Shown here piece by piece: positions 867 to 60,288 of a stretch of 64,000 bases of DNA. A program made the translations under genes and the position numbers. The DNA comes from an archaeon. Lineage in GTDB: Archaea > Micrarchaeota > Micrarchaeia > Anstonellales > Anstonellaceae. The stretch is from positions 28,638-92,637 of the forward strand of contig JAGVHI010000003.1 in assembly GCA_020056635.1 (NCBI GenBank), read 5' to 3'. Within the stretch, counting starts at the first letter, position 1. The number at the start of each line of letters is the position of its first letter. A model generated the notes under the pieces. It saw nothing but the letters and a program-made list of their open reading frames with translations, searched no databases and was not told the origin of the DNA.

Positions 867-1051
867 TGCCATAGTAGCTCAACCTGGGAGAGCAATCGGC
901 TGAAGACCGATGTGTTGCTGGTTCAAGCCCCTTTTTCTTTCTTGAGAAGAAAGAAAAAGGCCCTTGGGTTCAAAAAGAAAGAAAACGAGAGCAAAAACTC
1001 TCTGCTTCGAAATAAGGAATCCGATGGCTGCCAAAAAATCCGGCCTATGGC
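867..1051 (+). tRNA. tRNA-Phe (anticodon GAA) interrupted by an approximately 111-nt intron in the T-loop
   Basis: Exon 1 (867-924) carries the acceptor gccatag, D-arm tagctcaacctgggagagc, anticodon stem atcgg/ccgat, loop ctgaaga (U33, GAA), variable gtgtt, T-stem gctgg and T-loop ttca. Exon 2 (1036-1051) supplies aat, T-stem ccggc (which pairs gctgg with one G.U), acceptor ctatggc (a perfect 7/7 complement of gccatag) and discriminator a. An oligo-T tract follows at 1052-1058. Confidence 0.7.
925..1035 (+). other. Putative long tRNA intron in the T-loop between nt 57 and 58, with a 14-bp perfect palindrome at 929-959
   Basis: Removing it reconstitutes the canonical T-loop ttcaaat. It contains the hairpin cctttttctttctt-gag-aagaaagaaaaagg. 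It is homologous to the tRNA-Arg intron at 30221-30348. The exact junction is ambiguous by 1 nt because of the a-run. Confidence 0.5.
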
Positions 1052-1058
1052 ATTTTTT
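1052..1058 (+). terminator. Oligo-T tract (ttttttt) directly after the tRNA-Phe discriminator; archaeal-style terminator
   Basis: Seven consecutive T immediately 3' of the tRNA. Confidence 0.4.
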
Positions 1059-7201: not shown

Positions 7202-7957
7202 ATGGCATTTGAGATGATAGTTGTCGCGACATTGTGGGCAAGCGCGGTTTCGTTCGTTGGAATCTCTTTCATTTTCCTAAACGAGAGGTACCTGAGAGTT
7301 TCTATAACATTGCTTGCAAGGCTTGCTGCTGGAGCGCTCCTTGCGGCAGTTTTCTTATCGCTCCTGCCGTCCGCCCTTTTGGGCCTTGGGCCCCAGGCTG
7401 CGATGATTGCGGTGTTTGCAGGGGTGGTTGGGTTCTTCGTGACGGAAAAAAGCATTGGCTGGCACCACCACCACGATATCCATACGAGGGGGCTTGAGGC
7501 TCCGCTCGGCTGGCGCAATTACATAGGGGATGGGATACACAACCTTTGTGACGGGGTGGCAATAGGATCCGCGTTCTTGGTCAGCCAGCCTGCAGGGATG
7601 ATTGCGACGCTTGCAGTCATAATGCACGAGATTCCGCAGGAAATCGGGGATTTCGGGCTGATGCTGCGAAGCGGGTTTGACAAGCAGAAAGCAATCGTGT
7701 TCAACGCATTTTCTGCGCTTCTGCTCGTATCGGGCGGGGTGGGCTTCTTTGCAGCGTATTATTACCTGCTCCCGTTTGTGCAGAATTTGGAGTTCTACGG
7801 CATGGCGTTTGCGTGCGGCATGTTCCTCTACATTGCGATAACCGACCTGATTCCGGACGTGCACAAGGACACGCCCAAGGGATGGCTGCACACCCAGCTT
7901 GCGCTTGTGCTGCTTGGGATAATGCTGATTGCAAGCGTTGCGATTTTCGTGAAATAG
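7202..7957 (+). CDS. zupT: ZIP family zinc/iron permease (ZupT-like)
   Basis: Eight predicted TM segments, HNLCDGVAIG and HEIPQEIGDFG motifs, and a His-rich loop WHHHHDIH. Confidence 0.8.
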   Translation: MAFEMIVVATLWASAVSFVGISFIFLNERYLRVSITLLARLAAGALLAAVFLSLLPSALLGLGPQAAMIAVFAGVVGFFVTEKSIGWHHHHDIHTRGLEAPLGWRNYIGDGIHNLCDGVAIGSAFLVSQPAGMIATLAVIMHEIPQEIGDFGLMLRSGFDKQKAIVFNAFSALLLVSGGVGFFAAYYYLLPFVQNLEFYGMAFACGMFLYIAITDLIPDVHKDTPKGWLHTQLALVLLGIMLIASVAIFVK

Positions 7958-25431: not shown

Positions 25432-25926
25432 ATGAGGGGGCAGGGAATAATATTCGATTTTGTGGTGTCGCTTTCGTTCTTCGTAGTGGGCGTGGTGATA
25501 ATGGTCGGGGCGCTTGATATGCTAGGCGAGAGGATGGAGAAGGAGAGGGATTATGCAAACGTGGCGCGGGCGGCCTACTTCGCATCCGAGAGCCTGCTCT
25601 CGCTTGGGAGCCCAGAAAACTGGAACACCAATGTACTTGCGCTAAACCAGATCCAGGTCGGGTTAGGGGCTGCGCCCGGTGAGCTGCATGGGGCAAAAAT
25701 ACGGAATTTCGCCGCCCTCAATGCAACGGATTATGACGGCCTGCGCTCGGCGCTTGGAGTCGGAAAATATGATCTTTATGTGAATATCACGCAACTGCAA
25801 GGCAATCAGAGCTATCTTGTGGGAAAGTTCTTTGACGAGTCGTATGGGGATTTTGATTATAGGGTGGAGAGGTATGCGCTTTTAGACGGCAACCTCACTA
25901 GGGTAGTGGTTGGAGTTTGGAAGTGA
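25432..25926 (+). CDS. Archaeal type-IV-pilin-like protein (class III signal peptide)
   Basis: MRGQGIIFDFVVSLSFFVVGVVIMVGAL. Confidence 0.55.
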   Translation: MRGQGIIFDFVVSLSFFVVGVVIMVGALDMLGERMEKERDYANVARAAYFASESLLSLGSPENWNTNVLALNQIQVGLGAAPGELHGAKIRNFAALNATDYDGLRSALGVGKYDLYVNITQLQGNQSYLVGKFFDESYGDFDYRVERYALLDGNLTRVVVGVWK

Positions 25927-25933
25927 TTTGCCA

Positions 25934-28900
25934 ATGAAAAAGAGCGGGTTTGTGATATCGTTCGAGGCGCTTACAGCGCTGCTCCTGGTATTCGCCACAC
26001 TGTCGCTCATGTATGCCGCGATGAGGGACGCCCCTGCCCCAAGGGAAATAGGCTCCGAGCACAACATCGAGGCGATTGCAAGCGACATCTCGGTCCTCTC
26101 CGGGCTAGTGTACGGGAAAAACCTGAGTACTGGGAGCGCGGACCAGGTGAGCTTCCTTCTCTACCGGCTCCAACCCGGGCTGTGCGCAAGAGTTTATCTT
26201 GTGGAGAATGGCACGGGAGGATATTTTGATTCTGTTTCGAGCGGGGATTGTAGGTTGCCTACTGAGGGGAGCAACCCCGCGCCGCCCATTGCGTATTGGA
26301 CGTTTGACGCAAAGCAGGTGAGGGGCGCCAATGCATCGAACTCCACCTATGCGCTTGATGCAAGCGGAGGAGGTTATGACTGCATTGTAGGAGGGCAAGC
26401 GAGCGATGTCGGGAGCAAGAGTGCGATGCCTGGCAAGCTTGAACGCGAGAGTTGCAGGCGCAAGGGGTGCTACTCCTTCGATGCGGTGGACGACCAGCTC
26501 TCATGCCAGAACTACAGCAGGCTTATGCATGTGACTGCGAGCGATTTCACAATCGGCGGGTGGATCTATCCGAATCCTACAGGCGTCGGCCCAAGCTATG
26601 TTATCCATTCCGGGGAAGGGAGCACTGAGGAGTTCGAGGTCAGGTATTATCCTGCCAGCAGCACCATATCCGCCCGGATTTATGCCCCGCGCAATGGGAC
26701 CGTGAATGCCACGTTGCACCCGCTGGGATGGCATCATTTTGCAGCAGTGGGCAGGGGCTCGAACCTGTCGCTTTATGTTGATGGGGAATACACAAACAGC
26801 ACTGGCATGACTGACAATGGCTTACCGTACATTTCGAAAATATATATGGGGGACGGGTTCAACGGGACCATTGATGAGCTTAAGATTTTCGACCGCGGGC
26901 TGACCGCGGCTCAAGTGCGCGAGGAGGCGGAATATAGGGTGTTTGGCAAGTATGGCTTTGACTATGATTTGCGTGCGCCCTTCTCACACGGCATGGCAGT
27001 GGATGAGAGCGGGAACTGGAATGATTTGAAAGTGAGGGGCAACGCGACGCAGAACATTTCTGAGATGGGCGGGCTGGCATTCAATTTCCCGGGCCCGATG
27101 GGCGGAAGCTCGCTTGAGAATACCACAATTGCGAACTTTACCCAGACAACAGTGATGATGCGGATCAAGCAGAGGTCATACGGCAATTCAACGAATTGGC
27201 CCGGGTTGGCAGCAAGAAGTGGCAGCTTCGCGTTCTATTCAAACACCACTGTAGGAGGCGGGCTTGTACTACTGGTGTGGAATGCAACAGGCGGCGTTAT
27301 ACGAATACCGTCATTGTTACCCCAGGTTCCGCTTGACGAGTGGCACCATGTCGCGTTCACGTATGCAGGTAAGAACGCAACAATCTATCTTGATGGAGTT
27401 GGAGCGAACAGCAGCGACGCGATATACCCATACAATTTAACGCTGTCTGGAACGCAAGGTCCGCTGCAGATTGGCACGACAAATTTCGGTGTGCATGATT
27501 TCAACGGGACAATGGATGATGTGAGGGTTTATTCAAGGGCGCTTGGTGCGAGTGAAATCGAGTCAGCATATAGGGGCTATGTTGAGCACCCTGCCATATA
27601 TGAGAGTAAATCGTTGTTTGGGGCAACATACGCGAAAATTGGCGGGCTCCTTGGAACGATAAACAGGACAGCCGCGTTCTATTCGTTTGACCTTAATGCG
27701 ACTGGCAACATCACAAATGACTCCTCCCCCAATGTCTTGAATGGGCTTGTAGGTGAGGGAATTGCCCAGAAGATGCCGTACCTAAACCGCTCCAATAATA
27801 GCCCAATTGGGAATGATTACCTGAGGCTGCAGAATTTGTCCGCGTTCTACGAGTTTGACGGGGTGAATGACACCATAGCGGTGCCGAGCAATAGCCTGCT
27901 GCAGAACCCTGCTGATTTGACCGTGGAGGCGTGGGTCAGGCCCAAAAACAACGTTCCAGCAAACCAGATTGTGGCATCGTACTTAAATTCTGCAGACAAT
28001 ACTGGATGGGAGCTTAGGCTTGTTGATTCTGGGGGAACACTAAATCAGGTGATAAGGAGGGGCGATGGGGGCGGAACCTCAATCCTCACTGGGAGCGAAG
28101 CAGTCTGGGTCAACAGGTGGAGCTACATCGCTGCGACATTTTCCAGGGCAGAGGGCTCAAAGCTGTATAGGAATGGGATGCTTGTTGGGGGCAATTCAAG
28201 CGATACTGGCCCATGGCCGAACCCAACATTGAGCAATTTCACAATAGGGGGAAACGCATCAGGTTGTGCAACTTGCTTCTTCAACGGGAGCATTGATGAG
28301 GTGAGGCTGTACAACAAGAGCCTGAGCGAAAAGCAGATTTATGAAAGGTACTATCTTCGCGCAAGCTATTCGTTTGATGCCAACAATTCAACCACAGGGT
28401 TCTTCGTGAACGACAGCTCGGTTTACAAGGGGCATTGCAGGCTGGTGAACGGCACTTGGAACAGCACCGGTGGCATTTTGGGCAGGTTCTATGAATTCAA
28501 CGGGAGTACGGGTTCTGGGTTGAACTGCAGCAATTCAAGCTCAAGCAGCATCGTCGCGCTGGGTAACAGGACTGTGATGATGTGGTTTAGGCTGCGGGAG
28601 CCAAGTACCGTATCAGATTATTCGTATATCCTATTTTCACGAGGCCAGATTACATGGGACACCCTTGCGATAAATTCAAGCAGGACTATATTGACGTATT
28701 CGCACTCTTCGCCAACTGGGGTAAGTGTCATAGGCGCTCCAGTAACTCCCCTCTTTAGGGAGGTTCCAAAAAACCAGTGGCTGCATGCTGCCGTATCGTA
28801 CAACAATGCCAGTAAGGAAACCCGAGTTTACTTGAACGGGGTTATGCTTGGGAAAATTGCAAATGACACAGTCACATCCAATGAAGATATCCTCTATGTT

Positions 28901-29059
28901 GGGAGGGACACAGGTGGAAGCTATATGATGAACGGCAGCATGGACGAGGTGAAGGTTTTCGGCAGGGCATTGTCAGATTCTGAAATATTCGATGAGTATA
29001 TGAGCGCTGCAAACCCCAATGAGAGGTTTGCGGTGCGAAGCGTGGTGTGGGGCAGATGA
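25934..29059 (+). CDS. Giant pilin-like adhesin with a class-III signal peptide and four LamG/concanavalin-A-like domains, rich in N-glycosylation sequons
   Basis: N-terminus MKKSGFVISFEALTALLLVF. Four repeats of the LamG_3 hallmark: DELKIFDRGLTAAQVREEAEY, DDVRVYSRALGASEIESAY, DEVRLYNKSLSEKQIYERYY, DEVKVFGRALSDSEIFDEY. More than 40 N-x-S/T sequons. Confidence 0.7.
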   Translation: MKKSGFVISFEALTALLLVFATLSLMYAAMRDAPAPREIGSEHNIEAIASDISVLSGLVYGKNLSTGSADQVSFLLYRLQPGLCARVYLVENGTGGYFDSVSSGDCRLPTEGSNPAPPIAYWTFDAKQVRGANASNSTYALDASGGGYDCIVGGQASDVGSKSAMPGKLERESCRRKGCYSFDAVDDQLSCQNYSRLMHVTASDFTIGGWIYPNPTGVGPSYVIHSGEGSTEEFEVRYYPASSTISARIYAPRNGTVNATLHPLGWHHFAAVGRGSNLSLYVDGEYTNSTGMTDNGLPYISKIYMGDGFNGTIDELKIFDRGLTAAQVREEAEYRVFGKYGFDYDLRAPFSHGMAVDESGNWNDLKVRGNATQNISEMGGLAFNFPGPMGGSSLENTTIANFTQTTVMMRIKQRSYGNSTNWPGLAARSGSFAFYSNTTVGGGLVLLVWNATGGVIRIPSLLPQVPLDEWHHVAFTYAGKNATIYLDGVGANSSDAIYPYNLTLSGTQGPLQIGTTNFGVHDFNGTMDDVRVYSRALGASEIESAYRGYVEHPAIYESKSLFGATYAKIGGLLGTINRTAAFYSFDLNATGNITNDSSPNVLNGLVGEGIAQKMPYLNRSNNSPIGNDYLRLQNLSAFYEFDGVNDTIAVPSNSLLQNPADLTVEAWVRPKNNVPANQIVASYLNSADNTGWELRLVDSGGTLNQVIRRGDGGGTSILTGSEAVWVNRWSYIAATFSRAEGSKLYRNGMLVGGNSSDTGPWPNPTLSNFTIGGNASGCATCFFNGSIDEVRLYNKSLSEKQIYERYYLRASYSFDANNSTTGFFVNDSSVYKGHCRLVNGTWNSTGGILGRFYEFNGSTGSGLNCSNSSSSSIVALGNRTVMMWFRLREPSTVSDYSYILFSRGQITWDTLAINSSRTILTYSHSSPTGVSVIGAPVTPLFREVPKNQWLHAAVSYNNASKETRVYLNGVMLGKIANDTVTSNEDILYVGRDTGGSYMMNGSMDEVKVFGRALSDSEIFDEYMSAANPNERFAVRSVVWGR

Positions 29060-30015
29060 TGGGTTCAAAAAAAGGCTACATATACACTATTTCGATCGTG
29101 CTGATAGGCACCATACTGTCGATATTTGTGTTCAACGCATACACGCAGCACTACAGTTCGCTTATTTCCCAGCGCATAGAGTCGAGCCTGCCGCGCGCGC
29201 AGCAGGAGTTTGATTTCGTCGCTGCACAGTCGCTTGACCTGGCAAAAAACAGGGTGAGGATTTCCGGCAATTCGACTTTTTACAATGTTACGGTAACAGA
29301 CGTGCTGCCGCACAGGGCTGACAATATGGACTTCATAAACTGGAGCGCATATGGCTACTATTTGAACGGCAGCTACTACGGCCAGTCGCACTCGAACCTG
29401 ACTGTTTCGAAATACTTCTCCAATTCCAATGACGGCATGAACACCACCTTTAGGCTGTCTGCCATGGGGCCTGGAGCGGCAGCCCCCTGGAACAATATAA
29501 TGGACTGGAGAAGGGGGAATGCGAACAGCTCGAATTTCACCTATACGAAAAGCCTGACCCAGAACATGAGCGTCTCTGTGCGGTGCCAGAATGCGTCAAC
29601 AATGAGCCCGGCCGTAGTTCCTGGCAGCGATTCAAGCAATCCGTTCTACATGAAATATTCAGATCCGAATAGGGCATATGCGCAGACTGCCATTGCATCT
29701 GGCGGCGCATCAGAGGATTTGGTGGTATTTTTCATCGAGTTCAACTCAAGCGCGCCCAGCATCAATTTCACATTGAGGTTCGTGAATGAAACGCCTGTGC
29801 TGGGTGTGGGCGGAGGGGCGCAGTGCGAGGTTAACGCAAGCGTAACTACGAATGGATTGAATGAGAATTACACTGTTAAATATGATTTCAATACGCTATT
29901 GAACTACACTGCGCGCGCAGGGGACGTGGCAAACGTCACAAAATCGGCAGTTATAGGCAGGTACATGCGCGACCCGGAGTATTATGCAGCCCCGATAGAT
30001 GATTCGCAGCCTTAG
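29056..30015 (+). CDS. Pilin-like secreted protein (class III signal peptide), with heavy N-glycosylation sequon load
   Basis: MMGSKKGYIYTISIVLIGTILSIFVF. The ATG overlaps the upstream TGA as ATGA (translational coupling). Many NxS/T sequons (NSTF, NVTV, NWSA, NGSY, NLTV, NMSV, NAST, NFTL, NETP, NASV, NYTV, NYTA, NVTK). Confidence 0.6.
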   Translation: MMGSKKGYIYTISIVLIGTILSIFVFNAYTQHYSSLISQRIESSLPRAQQEFDFVAAQSLDLAKNRVRISGNSTFYNVTVTDVLPHRADNMDFINWSAYGYYLNGSYYGQSHSNLTVSKYFSNSNDGMNTTFRLSAMGPGAAAPWNNIMDWRRGNANSSNFTYTKSLTQNMSVSVRCQNASTMSPAVVPGSDSSNPFYMKYSDPNRAYAQTAIASGGASEDLVVFFIEFNSSAPSINFTLRFVNETPVLGVGGGAQCEVNASVTTNGLNENYTVKYDFNTLLNYTARAGDVANVTKSAVIGRYMRDPEYYAAPIDDSQP

Positions 30016-30169
30016 CTGGAGCCTATTGCAGGGGCGCGGCTGGGACTAATCAAGGAATATAAAGCTATTATGGGATAAGAATGGCGCAACGCCCCTGGCC
30101 TATAACCGGGGCTAGTTAGGAATTGGAAAAATGAAAACGGGCCCGTAGCTCAGCTTGGATAGAGCGGCA

Positions 30170-30192
30170 AGAGGGGGCAGCCCCTCCCGCAT
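30170..30192 (+). other. Putative 23-nt non-canonical tRNA intron between nt 29 and 30 of tRNA-Arg
   Basis: Contains its own hairpin gagggg-gcag-cccctc. Its removal restores a 5-bp anticodon stem. Confidence 0.45.
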
Positions 30193-30220
30193 GCCTTCTA
30201 AGCTGTAGGTCATGGGTTCA

Positions 30221-30348
30221 GGCCCTTTTCTTTCCGTCCGGAAAGAAAAGCCCCTGGGGAAAAGAAAGAATTTTACTGCGGAAAATATCGCCTTTCGGCG
30301 TTTTTCCGCCCTGAAATATCTTCTCCCTATGGTTATAGGCCGCCCAAA
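30221..30348 (+). other. Putative 128-nt T-loop intron of tRNA-Arg, with an 11-bp perfect hairpin at 30225-30250
   Basis: Removal reconstitutes T-loop ttcaaat. Hairpin cttttctttcc-gtcc-ggaaagaaaag. Homologous to the tRNA-Phe intron at 925-1035. Confidence 0.5.
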
Positions 30349-30400
30349 AATCCCATCGGGCCCGTCCATTATAGAGGCTAGAAGCAGGGAGGTAGGGAAC

Positions 30401-30652
30401 ATGTCATCGGCGCAGGTAAGCGACATAATCGAGCTCATGGAAACAGTGATAAACGACACTTCGATACCGAAGAACATAAGGAAAAATGTCAGCGATGCGA
30501 GGGACAGGCTGAAAAGCGCTGACGAGCTTGCGACAAGCGTGAGCTCCGCAATCTATTCGATTGAGGAGATTTCGGAGGACATTAACATGCCGATGCACGC
30601 GCGGACGCAGATTTGGACAATACTCTCCGCGCTTGAATCGCTAAAGAAATAG
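30401..30652 (+). CDS. UPF0147-family small conserved archaeal protein
   Basis: MSSAQVSDIIELMETVINDTSIPKNIRKNV...PMHARTQIWTILSALESL matches the UPF0147 pattern. Confidence 0.7.
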   Translation: MSSAQVSDIIELMETVINDTSIPKNIRKNVSDARDRLKSADELATSVSSAIYSIEEISEDINMPMHARTQIWTILSALESLKK

Positions 30653-51231: not shown

Positions 51232-51287
51232 GCTGCCCCTGTTTCCTTTTTATTCTTTCAAGGAGTAGCATTGGTGCTGCATTTTAT

Positions 51288-51359
51288 GGGCTAGTGGCGC
51301 AACGGTAGCGCGCCTGCATGGCATGCAGGAGGCTGGGGGCTCGAATCCCCCCTAGTCCA
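51288..51359 (+). tRNA. tRNA-Ala (anticodon GGC)
   Basis: Acceptor gggctag/ctagtcc with the G3:U70 Ala identity pair. Anticodon stem cctgc/gcagg, loop atggcat. T-arm ggggg-ctcgaat-ccccc. Confidence 0.9.
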
Positions 51360-51441
51360 TTTCAATCACAACAAGAACGATAAAGGATGAGGCGCTTTTG
51401 CGAAAAAGAAGTTATTTATACTGAACAGACAATAGTTTGTT

Positions 51442-59373: not shown

Positions 59374-60288
59374 GTGATGGATTTTCTCAAAATGGGCGAC
59401 ATAAGCCCGAAAGATCTGCAGGACATACTCTGGGTTTCGCTTAGGATTAAGCAGGAGTTGAAAGGCGGAACGCATGAAGAGATGCTGAAGGGGAAAACGC
59501 TTCTGATGCTCTTTTCGAAAAATAGCACAAGGACGAGAGTTTCATTCGAGACCGGGATGACGCAGCTTGGGGGGCACGCAGTATTCCTGGATATGGAAAA
59601 ATCGCAGGGTTCCAGGGGCGAGAGTTTCTTTGATATGGGCGGGTCTGTGGGCGGGATGGCGGACTTGGTCATGGCAAGATTGCACTCGCACCAGGATATT
59701 GAGAAACTCGCAGAGGGTTCGGCTGCGCCTGTGATAAACGGGCTTACAGACTTGGAGCATCCATGCCAGGCGCTTTCGGACATGCTCACGCTCTGGGAGC
59801 TTGGGAAACTCAAAAAGGGGGGCAAGCTTGCGTTTGTCGGGGACTGCAGGAACAATGTGGCGAATTCCCTCATGCTTGCGTGCGCAATGTCCGGCTTGGA
59901 GGTTTCCATGGTAGGACCGGAGGGATATGCGCCAAAAAGCGAATATGTTGAGATGGCACAGGGGTTTGGGTGCAAGGTAGAGCATTGCGCTGATGTGGAA
60001 AAAGGGTTAGAGGGCGTGGATGCAGTTTATACTGACACCTGGGTTTCAATGGGTGATGAAATTGAAGCGAAGAAGAGGGTTGAAGTGTTATCTCCATACC
60101 AGGTGGATGAGAAGCTGATGTATTATGCAAAGCAGGATGCGGTATTCATGCACTGCCTTCCTGCGCATAGGGGGCAGGAGGTCACAAATGAGGTGATTGA
60201 TGGGAAGCAGAGCGTGGTATTCTTGCAGGCTGAGAACAGGATGCATGCGCAAAAAGGGCTTATGTGCTGGCTTCTCGGAAAGGCGTGA
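59374..60288 (+). CDS. argF: Ornithine carbamoyltransferase
   Basis: STRTR, HPCQ, SMG and FMHCLP motifs. Confidence 0.85.
   Translation: MMDFLKMGDISPKDLQDILWVSLRIKQELKGGTHEEMLKGKTLLMLFSKNSTRTRVSFETGMTQLGGHAVFLDMEKSQGSRGESFFDMGGSVGGMADLVMARLHSHQDIEKLAEGSAAPVINGLTDLEHPCQALSDMLTLWELGKLKKGGKLAFVGDCRNNVANSLMLACAMSGLEVSMVGPEGYAPKSEYVEMAQGFGCKVEHCADVEKGLEGVDAVYTDTWVSMGDEIEAKKRVEVLSPYQVDEKLMYYAKQDAVFMHCLPAHRGQEVTNEVIDGKQSVVFLQAENRMHAQKGLMCWLLGKA

Follow-up and report, generated by a model that had tools for sequence, protein, structure and literature searches.

Disrupted transfer RNA (tRNA) genes of the archaeal phylum Micrarchaeota are best known from ARMAN-2 (Candidatus Micrarchaeum acidiphilum), in which 56% of the tRNA genes are interrupted and T-loop introns occur at positions 53/54 and 59/60; the three-unit ε2 endonuclease of this organism cleaves both the strict and the relaxed form of the bulge-helix-bulge motif in vitro (Fujishima et al. 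2011, PMC3239211), relaxed motifs being described there as a substrate class of ε2 and (αβ)2 enzymes, and structures of the ε2 splicing endonuclease are available (PMC3488258, PMC12397907). Here we analyse a 64,000-nt stretch of DNA from an archaeon of the Anstonellales (GenBank assembly GCA_020056635.1, contig JAGVHI010000003.1, positions 28,638–92,637; hereafter the window), the segment 30139–30364 of which is, as judged from its sequence, a functional gene for tRNA-Arg(UCU) in a Micrarchaeota (DPANN) genome, interrupted by two introns of the protein-spliced type.

Archaeal tRNA introns in general measure 11–129 nt, with medians of 12–25 nt (PMC4090602). In Thermoproteales up to three introns may reside in one tRNA gene, at many different positions (Sugahara 2008; Fujishima 2010; both via PMC4090602 and PMC4033280), and like intron sequences shared between tRNAs and between positions have been read there as a sign of intron spread. 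The intron of euryarchaeal tRNA-Trp, with a median length of 65 nt, embeds a box C/D small RNA, which accounts for its length (cited in PMC4090602).

A tRNA-Arg gene in three exons

Joining the three exons of 30139–30364 (Table 1) results in a 75-nt sequence, GGGCCCGTAGCTCAGCTTGGATAGAGCGGCAGCCTTCTAAGCTGTAGGTCATGGGTTCAAATCCCATCGGGCCCG, which ARAGORN identifies as tRNA-Arg(tct), with an acceptor stem paired in all seven positions, a D-stem of 4 bp, an anticodon stem of 5 bp including one G-U pair, the anticodon loop CTTCTAA, and the T-arm ATGGG-TTCAAAT-CCCAT. The original prediction had proposed such a three-exon cloverleaf and had maintained that it can be built only if both intervening segments are taken out; this agrees with our findings, as the bases of the segment are those it gave, all stems are intact, and ARAGORN reports nothing at this locus when the sequence is unspliced or when only one of the two introns is removed. 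No CCA is encoded, the third exon ending at the discriminator G.

The need for such a tRNA is apparent from codon usage: AGA (18) and AGG (160) together account for 64% of the 276 arginine codons in the 14 Pfam-supported genes of the window. No other tRNA-Arg(TCT) was found within these 64 kb, neither by ARAGORN nor by Rfam scans at gathering and at permissive thresholds, and the gene is probably single-copy. The 226-nt precursor folds with z = −7.0 relative to dinucleotide shuffles; its minimum-energy structure includes the central helix and the bulge of intron 2 described below.

Table 1. Coordinates of the tRNA-Arg(UCU) gene, its introns and related elements (positions are those of the window unless another locus is named)
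Feature	Coordinates	Strand	Remarks
Exon 1	30139..30169	+	tRNA positions 1–29: acceptor 5′ strand, D-arm, start of anticodon stem; 30/31 nt identical to L001
Intron 1, 23 nt	30170..30192	+	Position 29/30; relaxed bulge-helix-bulge
Exon 2	30193..30219	+	tRNA positions 30–56: anticodon loop CTTCTAA, variable loop, T-stem 5′ strand, T54–C56; 26/27 nt identical to L001
Intron 2, 128 nt	30220..30347	+	T-loop position 56/57 (30221–30348 if written as 57/58)
Exon 3	30348..30364	+	tRNA positions 57–73: AAAT of T-loop, CCCAT, acceptor CGGGCCC, discriminator G; 17/17 nt identical to L001
Hairpin A of intron 2	30225..30250	+	Pyrimidine arm CTTTTCTTTCCG, loop TC, purine arm CGGAAAGAAAAG
Purine tract of intron 2	30259..30270	+	GAAAAGAAAGAA; mirror of the hairpin A purine arm (10/12 match)
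Hairpin B of intron 2, top	30278..30309	+	GCGGAAAA...TTTTCCGC around CGCC/GGCG; contains a five-T run
UPF0147 gene	30401..30652	+	Start ATG 30401 behind GGAGGT; followed by the PolD small and large subunit genes
tRNA-Phe(GAA) gene	868..1052	+	Exons 868–924 and 1036–1052; 111-nt intron 925–1035 at T-loop position 56/57
Core, intron 2 of tRNA-Arg	30225–30270
Core, intron of tRNA-Phe	930–985
Core, L001	402–443
Core, L007	2840–2894
Core, L008	3067–3123
Core, L011	3521–3572
Core, L041	1604–1653 and 1754–1797
Core, L083	1336–1380	−

Splice junctions and the probable route of splicing

The standard geometry, which reportedly goes back to Marck and Grosjean (2003), has exon bases −6 to −3 paired with bases n−5 to n−2 of the intron and places each cut after the second base of a 3-nt bulge. 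Both junctions of the tRNA-Arg gene conform to it. At intron 1 the central helix is formed by GCGG (30164–30167) and CCGC (30187–30190) with the bulges CA|A and AT|G, and a helix of 6 bp inside the intron (GAGGGG, 30171–30176, with CCCCTC, 30181–30186) closes the structure; at intron 2 the corresponding elements are GGGT (30214–30217) with GCCC (30342–30345), the bulges TC|A and AA|A, and an internal helix of 4 bp between GGCC 30221–30224 and GGCC 30338–30341. Intron 2 can be written in two registers (Table 1), because one A is repeated at both of its ends, and the spliced product is identical for the two. The original prediction had correctly recognized a second intron within the T-loop and had placed the cut after TTCA, at 57/58; there, however, only one of the four pairs of the central helix is formed, versus all four at 56/57, and since only the latter gives a bulge-helix-bulge, 56/57 is the better placement.

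The outer helix between the exons comprises 0 bp at intron 1, as in all 13 orthologs with this intron, and 1 bp at intron 2, which makes either motif a relaxed rather than a strict bulge-helix-bulge. The splicing-endonuclease-compatible structure that had been called for at both junctions is thus present in relaxed form, with a fully paired central helix in either case. When the geometry was applied to random placements in the window, a central helix with four of four pairs alone occurred with a frequency of 0.024, such a helix combined with an internal helix of at least 4 bp with 5.7e-4, and with one of at least 6 bp with 6.7e-5; a chance origin of both motifs is excluded. In the orthologs described below nearly all of the approximately 40 introns have a central helix with four of four pairs and 3-nt bulges, and the rule itself is validated by the canonical 37/38 introns among them, because these show the fully paired helix together with the anticodon stem as outer helix. 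The central helices covary, GGGT/GCCC in tRNA-Arg versus TGGT/GCCA in the tRNA-Phe gene of the window (see below), and TTCG/CGAA in L049 versus TTCA/TGAA in the others; likewise, the sequence of the internal helix of the 29/30 intron varies by lineage while its pairing is kept (GAGGGG/CCCCTC in the window, GGAA/TTCC in L001, 7 bp in L005).

Very probably, the mature tRNA arises when an archaeal splicing endonuclease of broad specificity cuts out the introns and the exons are then ligated. We infer that the gene would be transcribed as a single precursor, in which, at each junction, the four exon bases upstream of the 5′ site pair with the four intron bases upstream of the 3′ site (G24–G27 with CCGC, and G51–T54 with GCCC), which would leave the two 3-nt bulges exposed, the intron-internal helix closing the far side. 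Because the D-stem's 3′ strand and the T-stem's 5′ strand are engaged in these pairings, neither of the two mature arms, D or T, can form before excision. Motifs of the relaxed type would call for an enzyme of broad specificity, like the ε2 EndA of ARMAN-2; by analogy with this relative (PMC3239211) the endonuclease of the present organism may be of the same type. The exons would then be joined by an RtcB-type ligase and CCA added post-transcriptionally.

Orthologous loci

A profile scan with DNA polymerase D (PolD) provided a set of 80 loci, mostly from Micrarchaeota and with one genome per species, to which six further loci were added from a metagenome scan with exon 1; introns of the orthologs were placed by dynamic-programming alignment to the intronless form of the gene, which is found in L042 and L047. 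The best relatives of the PolD small subunit encoded in the window all belong to Candidatus Micrarchaeota, Micrarchaeia or Anstonellales, which assigns the window to the phylum of ARMAN-2; the nearest, 76% identical, is encoded on a 7.3-kb Logan contig (L001), and the others reach at most 59% identity. In about 30 loci a tRNA-Arg(TCT) gene lies upstream of the UPF0147 and polymerase D genes, which amounts to conserved synteny; it is the sole tRNA-Arg(TCT) at that site in every locus examined, and splicing in silico yields tRNA-Arg(TCT) in every ortholog.

L001 agrees with the window in gene order and in its three-exon tRNA, both introns being kept. The exons of the two are identical in 73 of 75 positions (97%), both differences lying in loops, while identity amounts to 52% in intron 1, 68% in intron 2 and 54–59% in the flanks. 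Within the upstream flank (approximately 59% identity) a block at 30091–30114, CGCCCCTGGCCTATAACCGGGGCTA, located 25–48 nt upstream of the tRNA, is identical in L001 (283–306); it holds a TATA-like CTATAA inside a CCCCGG/CCGGGG inverted repeat and may be a promoter or a leader hairpin.

Across the set, introns interrupt this gene at five positions. The one at 29/30 is found in 13 loci and measures 15–48 nt, its central helix being made of GCGG with CCGC, CCGT or TCGT, so that the assignment of intron 1 to this position in the original prediction holds. Introns at 37/38 measure 13–101 nt; the 56/57 intron occurs in the window and L001, the 58/59 intron in L005, L082 and L083, and one of 13–44 nt at 59/60 in about ten loci. 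The 29/30 intron is the only one in L010, L013 and L084–L087; it is combined with the 58/59 intron in L005, L082 and L083, and the combination with 56/57 is shared with the window by L001 alone. It had also been suggested that non-canonical positions such as these are known in some archaeal lineages, which is the case for the orthologs (56/57, 58/59, 59/60) and for ARMAN-2 (53/54 and 59/60, PMC3239211), and that T-loop introns of more than 100 nt are unusual; as to length this stands, 128 nt being near the top of the published range of 11–129 nt (PMC4090602). The T-loop as such is no rare location for introns in this phylum. One ortholog in fixed synteny, with introns at five positions or none, makes a clean natural series for the study of intron gain, loss and movement, which should be informative also on the substrate range of the Micrarchaeota endonuclease.

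Two loci of the set contain additional tRNA sequence. On the minus strand of L003, about 95 nt downstream of the tRNA-Arg starting at 7242, the 3′ part is present a second time, from the variable loop through the acceptor end, and a duplicated 3′ part likewise follows the complete gene on the minus strand of L044, after 6989; both duplicates are interrupted by a hairpin-rich insert, and their appearance suggests a partial duplication in tandem or else the scar of an integration.

A second interrupted gene, tRNA-Phe(GAA)

Screening for hairpins whose 5′ arm consists solely of pyrimidines led to a second gene of this kind in the window, encoding tRNA-Phe(GAA) (Table 1). Its intron has the central helix TGGT/GCCA, the bulges TC|A and AA|A, and an internal helix of 4 bp; the spliced form is identified by ARAGORN, and Rfam gives only a partial, sub-threshold tRNA match at 868–938. 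Aligned with intron 2 of the tRNA-Arg gene, the Phe intron scores z = 4.6, with none of 500 shuffles as good, and it is a paralog of the former. To our knowledge tRNA-Phe(GAA) is normally the sole acceptor of phenylalanine; since it carries an intron of the 56/57 type, this type must be removable. Downstream of the gene come a run of seven T and, at a distance of 43 nt, a tRNA-Gly gene. Adjoining the tRNA-Phe/tRNA-Gly pair, on the minus strand (1259–2413), is a gene for a 384-amino acid protein with three tandem Endoribonuclease L-PSP (RidA-like) domains (PF01042, E = 7.6e-72).

The core of the long intron

Intron 2 folds by itself with z = −5.5. Its hairpin A is kept, with compensatory changes, in L001 and in the intron of tRNA-Phe, and hairpin B shows a compensatory change in L001, which has GCGAAAAA/TTTTTCGC. 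Hairpin A and the purine tract downstream of it form a core of fixed order, in which a pyrimidine arm (e.g., TTTTTCTTTT) is joined by a short loop to its complementary purine arm and, after a short spacer, a second purine tract follows, which is the mirror of the first and not its repeat. The same core is present in introns of L001, L007, L008, L011, L015, L041 (twice) and L083 (Table 1), at D-loop, 37/38, 56/57, 58/59 and 59/60 positions, with the remainder of the introns unalignable; the loci that bear it include Micrarchaeota with only approximately 50–57% PolD identity. Neither blastn nor nhmmer with intron 2 as query retrieved another copy from the window and 81 loci, even that of L001 being missed, and the family becomes visible only through the hairpin search and a profile of the core. 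The latter is a sequence profile and not a covariance model, because the MAFFT alignment lost the register of the hairpin arms. Run against 778 kb of archaeal loci, the profile matches tRNA introns only, plus one copy beside a tRNA-Lys gene. The long intron belongs to a family of related introns which reside at differing positions in differing tRNAs of Micrarchaeota.

The copy beside tRNA-Lys (L008, 901–956, plus strand) lies just upstream of the 5′ end of tRNA-Lys(TTT) (minus strand, ~779–891) in the opposite orientation, flanked by CGAGCCC...GGGCTCG, which is the acceptor sequence as an inverted repeat; possibly it is what remains of an intron or was inserted into the leader. An intron of 38 nt, at 59/60, is found in the tRNA-Lys gene itself.

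When cases are picked by the hairpin alone, the tract is an exact mirror of the purine arm in 7 of 10 cores, and the position of the G covaries: 5A-G-3A versus 3A-G-5A in L001, 4A-G-5A versus 5A-G-4A in others, and two mirrored Gs in tRNA-Phe. This rule, together with the topology of the strands, fits a triple helix of the purine type in which the third strand runs antiparallel to the duplex's purine strand, the tract at 30259–30270 being the possible third strand; the core on the opposite strand would correspond to a U·A-U/C+·G-C triple helix. A permissive Rfam scan of 30050–30450 gave only chance-level matches to microRNAs and small RNAs, that is, no known RNA family in the intron. As for established kinds of intronic RNA, a box C/D small RNA was rejected, as 30220–30347 has no C box, one CTGA and no small-nucleolar-RNA match in Rfam; the boxes of an H/ACA guide RNA are absent as well, and self-splicing group I or II introns are not compatible with inserts as small as 23 and 128 nt and with the chance-level Rfam matches of the region.

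The core might be more than a spacer, namely a functional, triple-helix-forming module, which would be compatible with removal of the intron by an endonuclease as outlined above; such a module could stabilize the excised and probably circular intron, bind a protein, or promote spread of the intron at the DNA level. We consider this possible but doubtful. It is favoured by the recurrence of one core in two tRNA genes of the window and in diverged loci whose introns are otherwise unalignable, by the confinement of the profile matches to tRNA introns save the copy beside tRNA-Lys, by the mirror rule with its covarying G and a topology as in purine-type triple helices (for the class see PMC13541005), and by the excess of mirror arrangements in viral contigs reported below. 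The sequences concerned are, however, of low complexity and the independent cases few; a selfish intron that spread recently would likewise account for the common sequence, with no function required; and the T-loop introns of L005 and L082 are equally long without having the hairpin. Purine-type triple helices made entirely of RNA are, moreover, generally thought to be weak. Nor is there an Rfam family or a paper to anchor the idea: scans with Rfam, covering the window and nine phage loci, gave no family of this design, and a full-text literature search brought up only MALAT1-type work.

The same design in phage contigs

The mirror arrangement is encountered also in viral contigs (L090–L186, from IMG/VR; e.g., L094, 7188–7227, minus strand), where 88 stretches from about 11 independent families have it, versus 8 stretches (about 4 independent) for a composition-matched direct-repeat control. 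One element, TTTTTCTTT-GACGC-AAAGAAAAAA-GATACC-AAAAAAGAAA, is found in more than 50 contigs of Bacteroidales-type phages; as seen from the open reading frames (ORFs) around it in L094, it is intergenic and lies about 10 nt before a strong intrinsic terminator. No Rfam family covers the phage sites in the nine loci scanned, and the only matching GenBank phage record carries no annotation. It is a tentative and, on balance, rather unlikely proposal that intron 2 is a member of an undescribed, spreading intron family of Micrarchaeota, the core of which would be an intramolecular triple-helix module that serves a purpose in itself and is no neutral spacer (it might protect the circular intron after excision, serve as a recognition site for proteins or nucleic acids, or drive insertion), and that the same module is found independently between genes in contigs of Bacteroidales-type phages. 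If it were a real triple-helix element, a new structured nucleic-acid motif common to archaeal introns and phages would have been found.

Points against splicing of a single precursor, and alternatives

Several points weigh against the gene being expressed and spliced as proposed. The outer helix is missing or nearly so in both motifs; the minimum-energy fold of the precursor does not exactly reproduce the motif of intron 1; no splicing endonuclease (PF01974, PF02778) was found among the 30 of 58 window ORFs included in the Pfam scan; an intact second tRNA-Arg(UCU) may exist in the genome beyond the 64-kb window; and five consecutive T occur within intron 2 (GGCGTTTTTCC). Such runs can act as termination signals in archaea.

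This last property leads to a scenario resembling split tRNAs, in which transcription would stop at the T-runs of intron 2 and restart from an internal promoter, so that a 5′ piece (exons 1 and 2) and a 3′ piece (exon 3) would meet in trans through the same helices. Runs of five to six T are indeed present in every member of the long-intron family (in tRNA-Arg the one just given, CCCCTTTTTCTTT in tRNA-Phe, and in L007, L008, L011 and L041), A/T-rich, TATA-like stretches precede exon 3 by 25–40 nt both in the window (GAAATATC) and in L001 (AATATAAT) and also in the Phe intron of the window (GAAATAAGG) and in L008 (TTATTTTTAT), and split tRNAs joined via this motif are known from Nanoarchaeum and Caldivirga (PMC4033280). 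Yet the pieces are adjacent and collinear on the same strand within 226 nt, as with ordinary introns; the TATA-like stretches are weak, variable in distance and absent in L007; most of the T-runs are base-paired in hairpins; and both signals were read by eye from the letters. We therefore regard this scenario as improbable.

That 30139–30364 is a pseudogene, a once intact tRNA-Arg inactivated by two insertions whose splice motifs are fortuitous, could be argued from the silence of standard detectors, from the outer helices of 0 and 1 bp and from the room that a 64-kb window leaves for a copy elsewhere, but is highly improbable given exons kept to 97% next to introns and flanks at 52–68%, intact stems throughout, a motif geometry expected by chance at less than 1e-3 per junction, a 29/30 intron that persists with compensatory changes in 13 diverged orthologs, the lack of any other tRNA-Arg(TCT) at the syntenic site, and the presence of the same intron type in tRNA-Phe.

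Detection by standard tRNA finders

ARAGORN and Rfam at its gathering threshold report only two tRNAs in the window, tRNA-Gly (1095–1170) and tRNA-Ala (51287–51360), and thus miss two of its four tRNA genes, Arg-UCU and Phe-GAA; a permissive Rfam scan of the whole window gave no tRNA match at 30139–30364 either, and in eight related loci every disrupted ortholog likewise went uncalled. tRNAscan-SE 2 looks for such introns only within candidates already found by its tRNA model (PMC8450103). Claims that DPANN genomes lack given tRNAs, and estimates of genome completeness that rely on counting tRNAs, are for this reason unsafe if searches are not intron-aware and do not allow for long introns.

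Neighbouring genes and other features of the window

The tRNA-Arg gene is followed, 37 nt downstream, by the UPF0147-PolD genes. The Pfam domain UPF0147 (PF03685) covers residues 67–143 of the 146-amino acid ORF 30212–30652 (profile positions 3–80 of 81); because it is restricted to this part of the long ORF, the true start is the ATG at 30401, in agreement with the start of the 82-amino acid UPF0147 gene called in L001. The long ORF is hence, as had been anticipated, an artefact of reading through the intron. There is no T-run in the intervening 30365–30400, the order tRNA-UPF0147-PolD is kept across the phylum, and the tRNA may be co-transcribed with these genes.

Just upstream (25910–30015, plus strand) are two large ORFs of 1049 and 322 amino acids, rich in N-x-S/T and with hydrophobic N-terminal segments, which presumably encode surface proteins; the 322-amino acid ORF, the one of the two that was scanned, has no Pfam match. 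Further away (59439–59508, plus strand) Rfam has a weak match, below threshold, to sR52, a box C/D RNA (24.4 bits versus a gathering score of 50, E = 0.72).

Comparison with known systems

With purine-type (reverse-Hoogsteen) triple helices and mirror-repeat H-DNA (PMC13541005) the core shares the rule for G·G-C and A·A-U(T) triples; known natural RNA triple helices, in contrast, are mostly of the U·A-U kind. The split and tri-split tRNAs known from Nanoarchaeum equitans and Caldivirga maquilingensis (PMC4033280) resemble the tRNA-Arg gene in that complementary flanks form the same endonuclease motif, but their parts are encoded at separate loci with promoters of their own, whereas here they are contiguous and collinear. 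The euryarchaeal tRNA-Trp intron (PMC4090602) is likewise of unusual length for an archaeal tRNA intron; it differs in occupying the canonical 37/38 site and in having C and D boxes, in place of which intron 2 has a single CTGA and no C box.

The introns of Thermoproteales are another parallel. Similar introns are found here, too, in different tRNAs and at different positions, as in the transposing introns of that group, and the paralogous 56/57 introns of tRNA-Arg and tRNA-Phe as well as the related cores at 37/38, 58/59, 59/60 and in the D-loop fit intron spread as described for that group. The differences are that the present phylum belongs to DPANN and not to Crenarchaeota, presumably with another type of endonuclease, and that the introns have a core which is long and structured and includes a mirror-repeat purine tract, of which the reviews consulted (PMC4090602, PMC4033280) make no mention.

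ARMAN-2 (PMC3239211) is a member of the same phylum with non-canonical and T-loop introns, more than one intron per gene, strict as well as relaxed motifs, and genes that standard finders miss; what sets the tRNA-Arg gene apart from it are the positions of its introns, 29/30 and 56/57, and a T-loop intron of 128 nt. The type of gene is thus already known in Micrarchaeota, and the length of its second intron is at the top of the published range, not beyond it.

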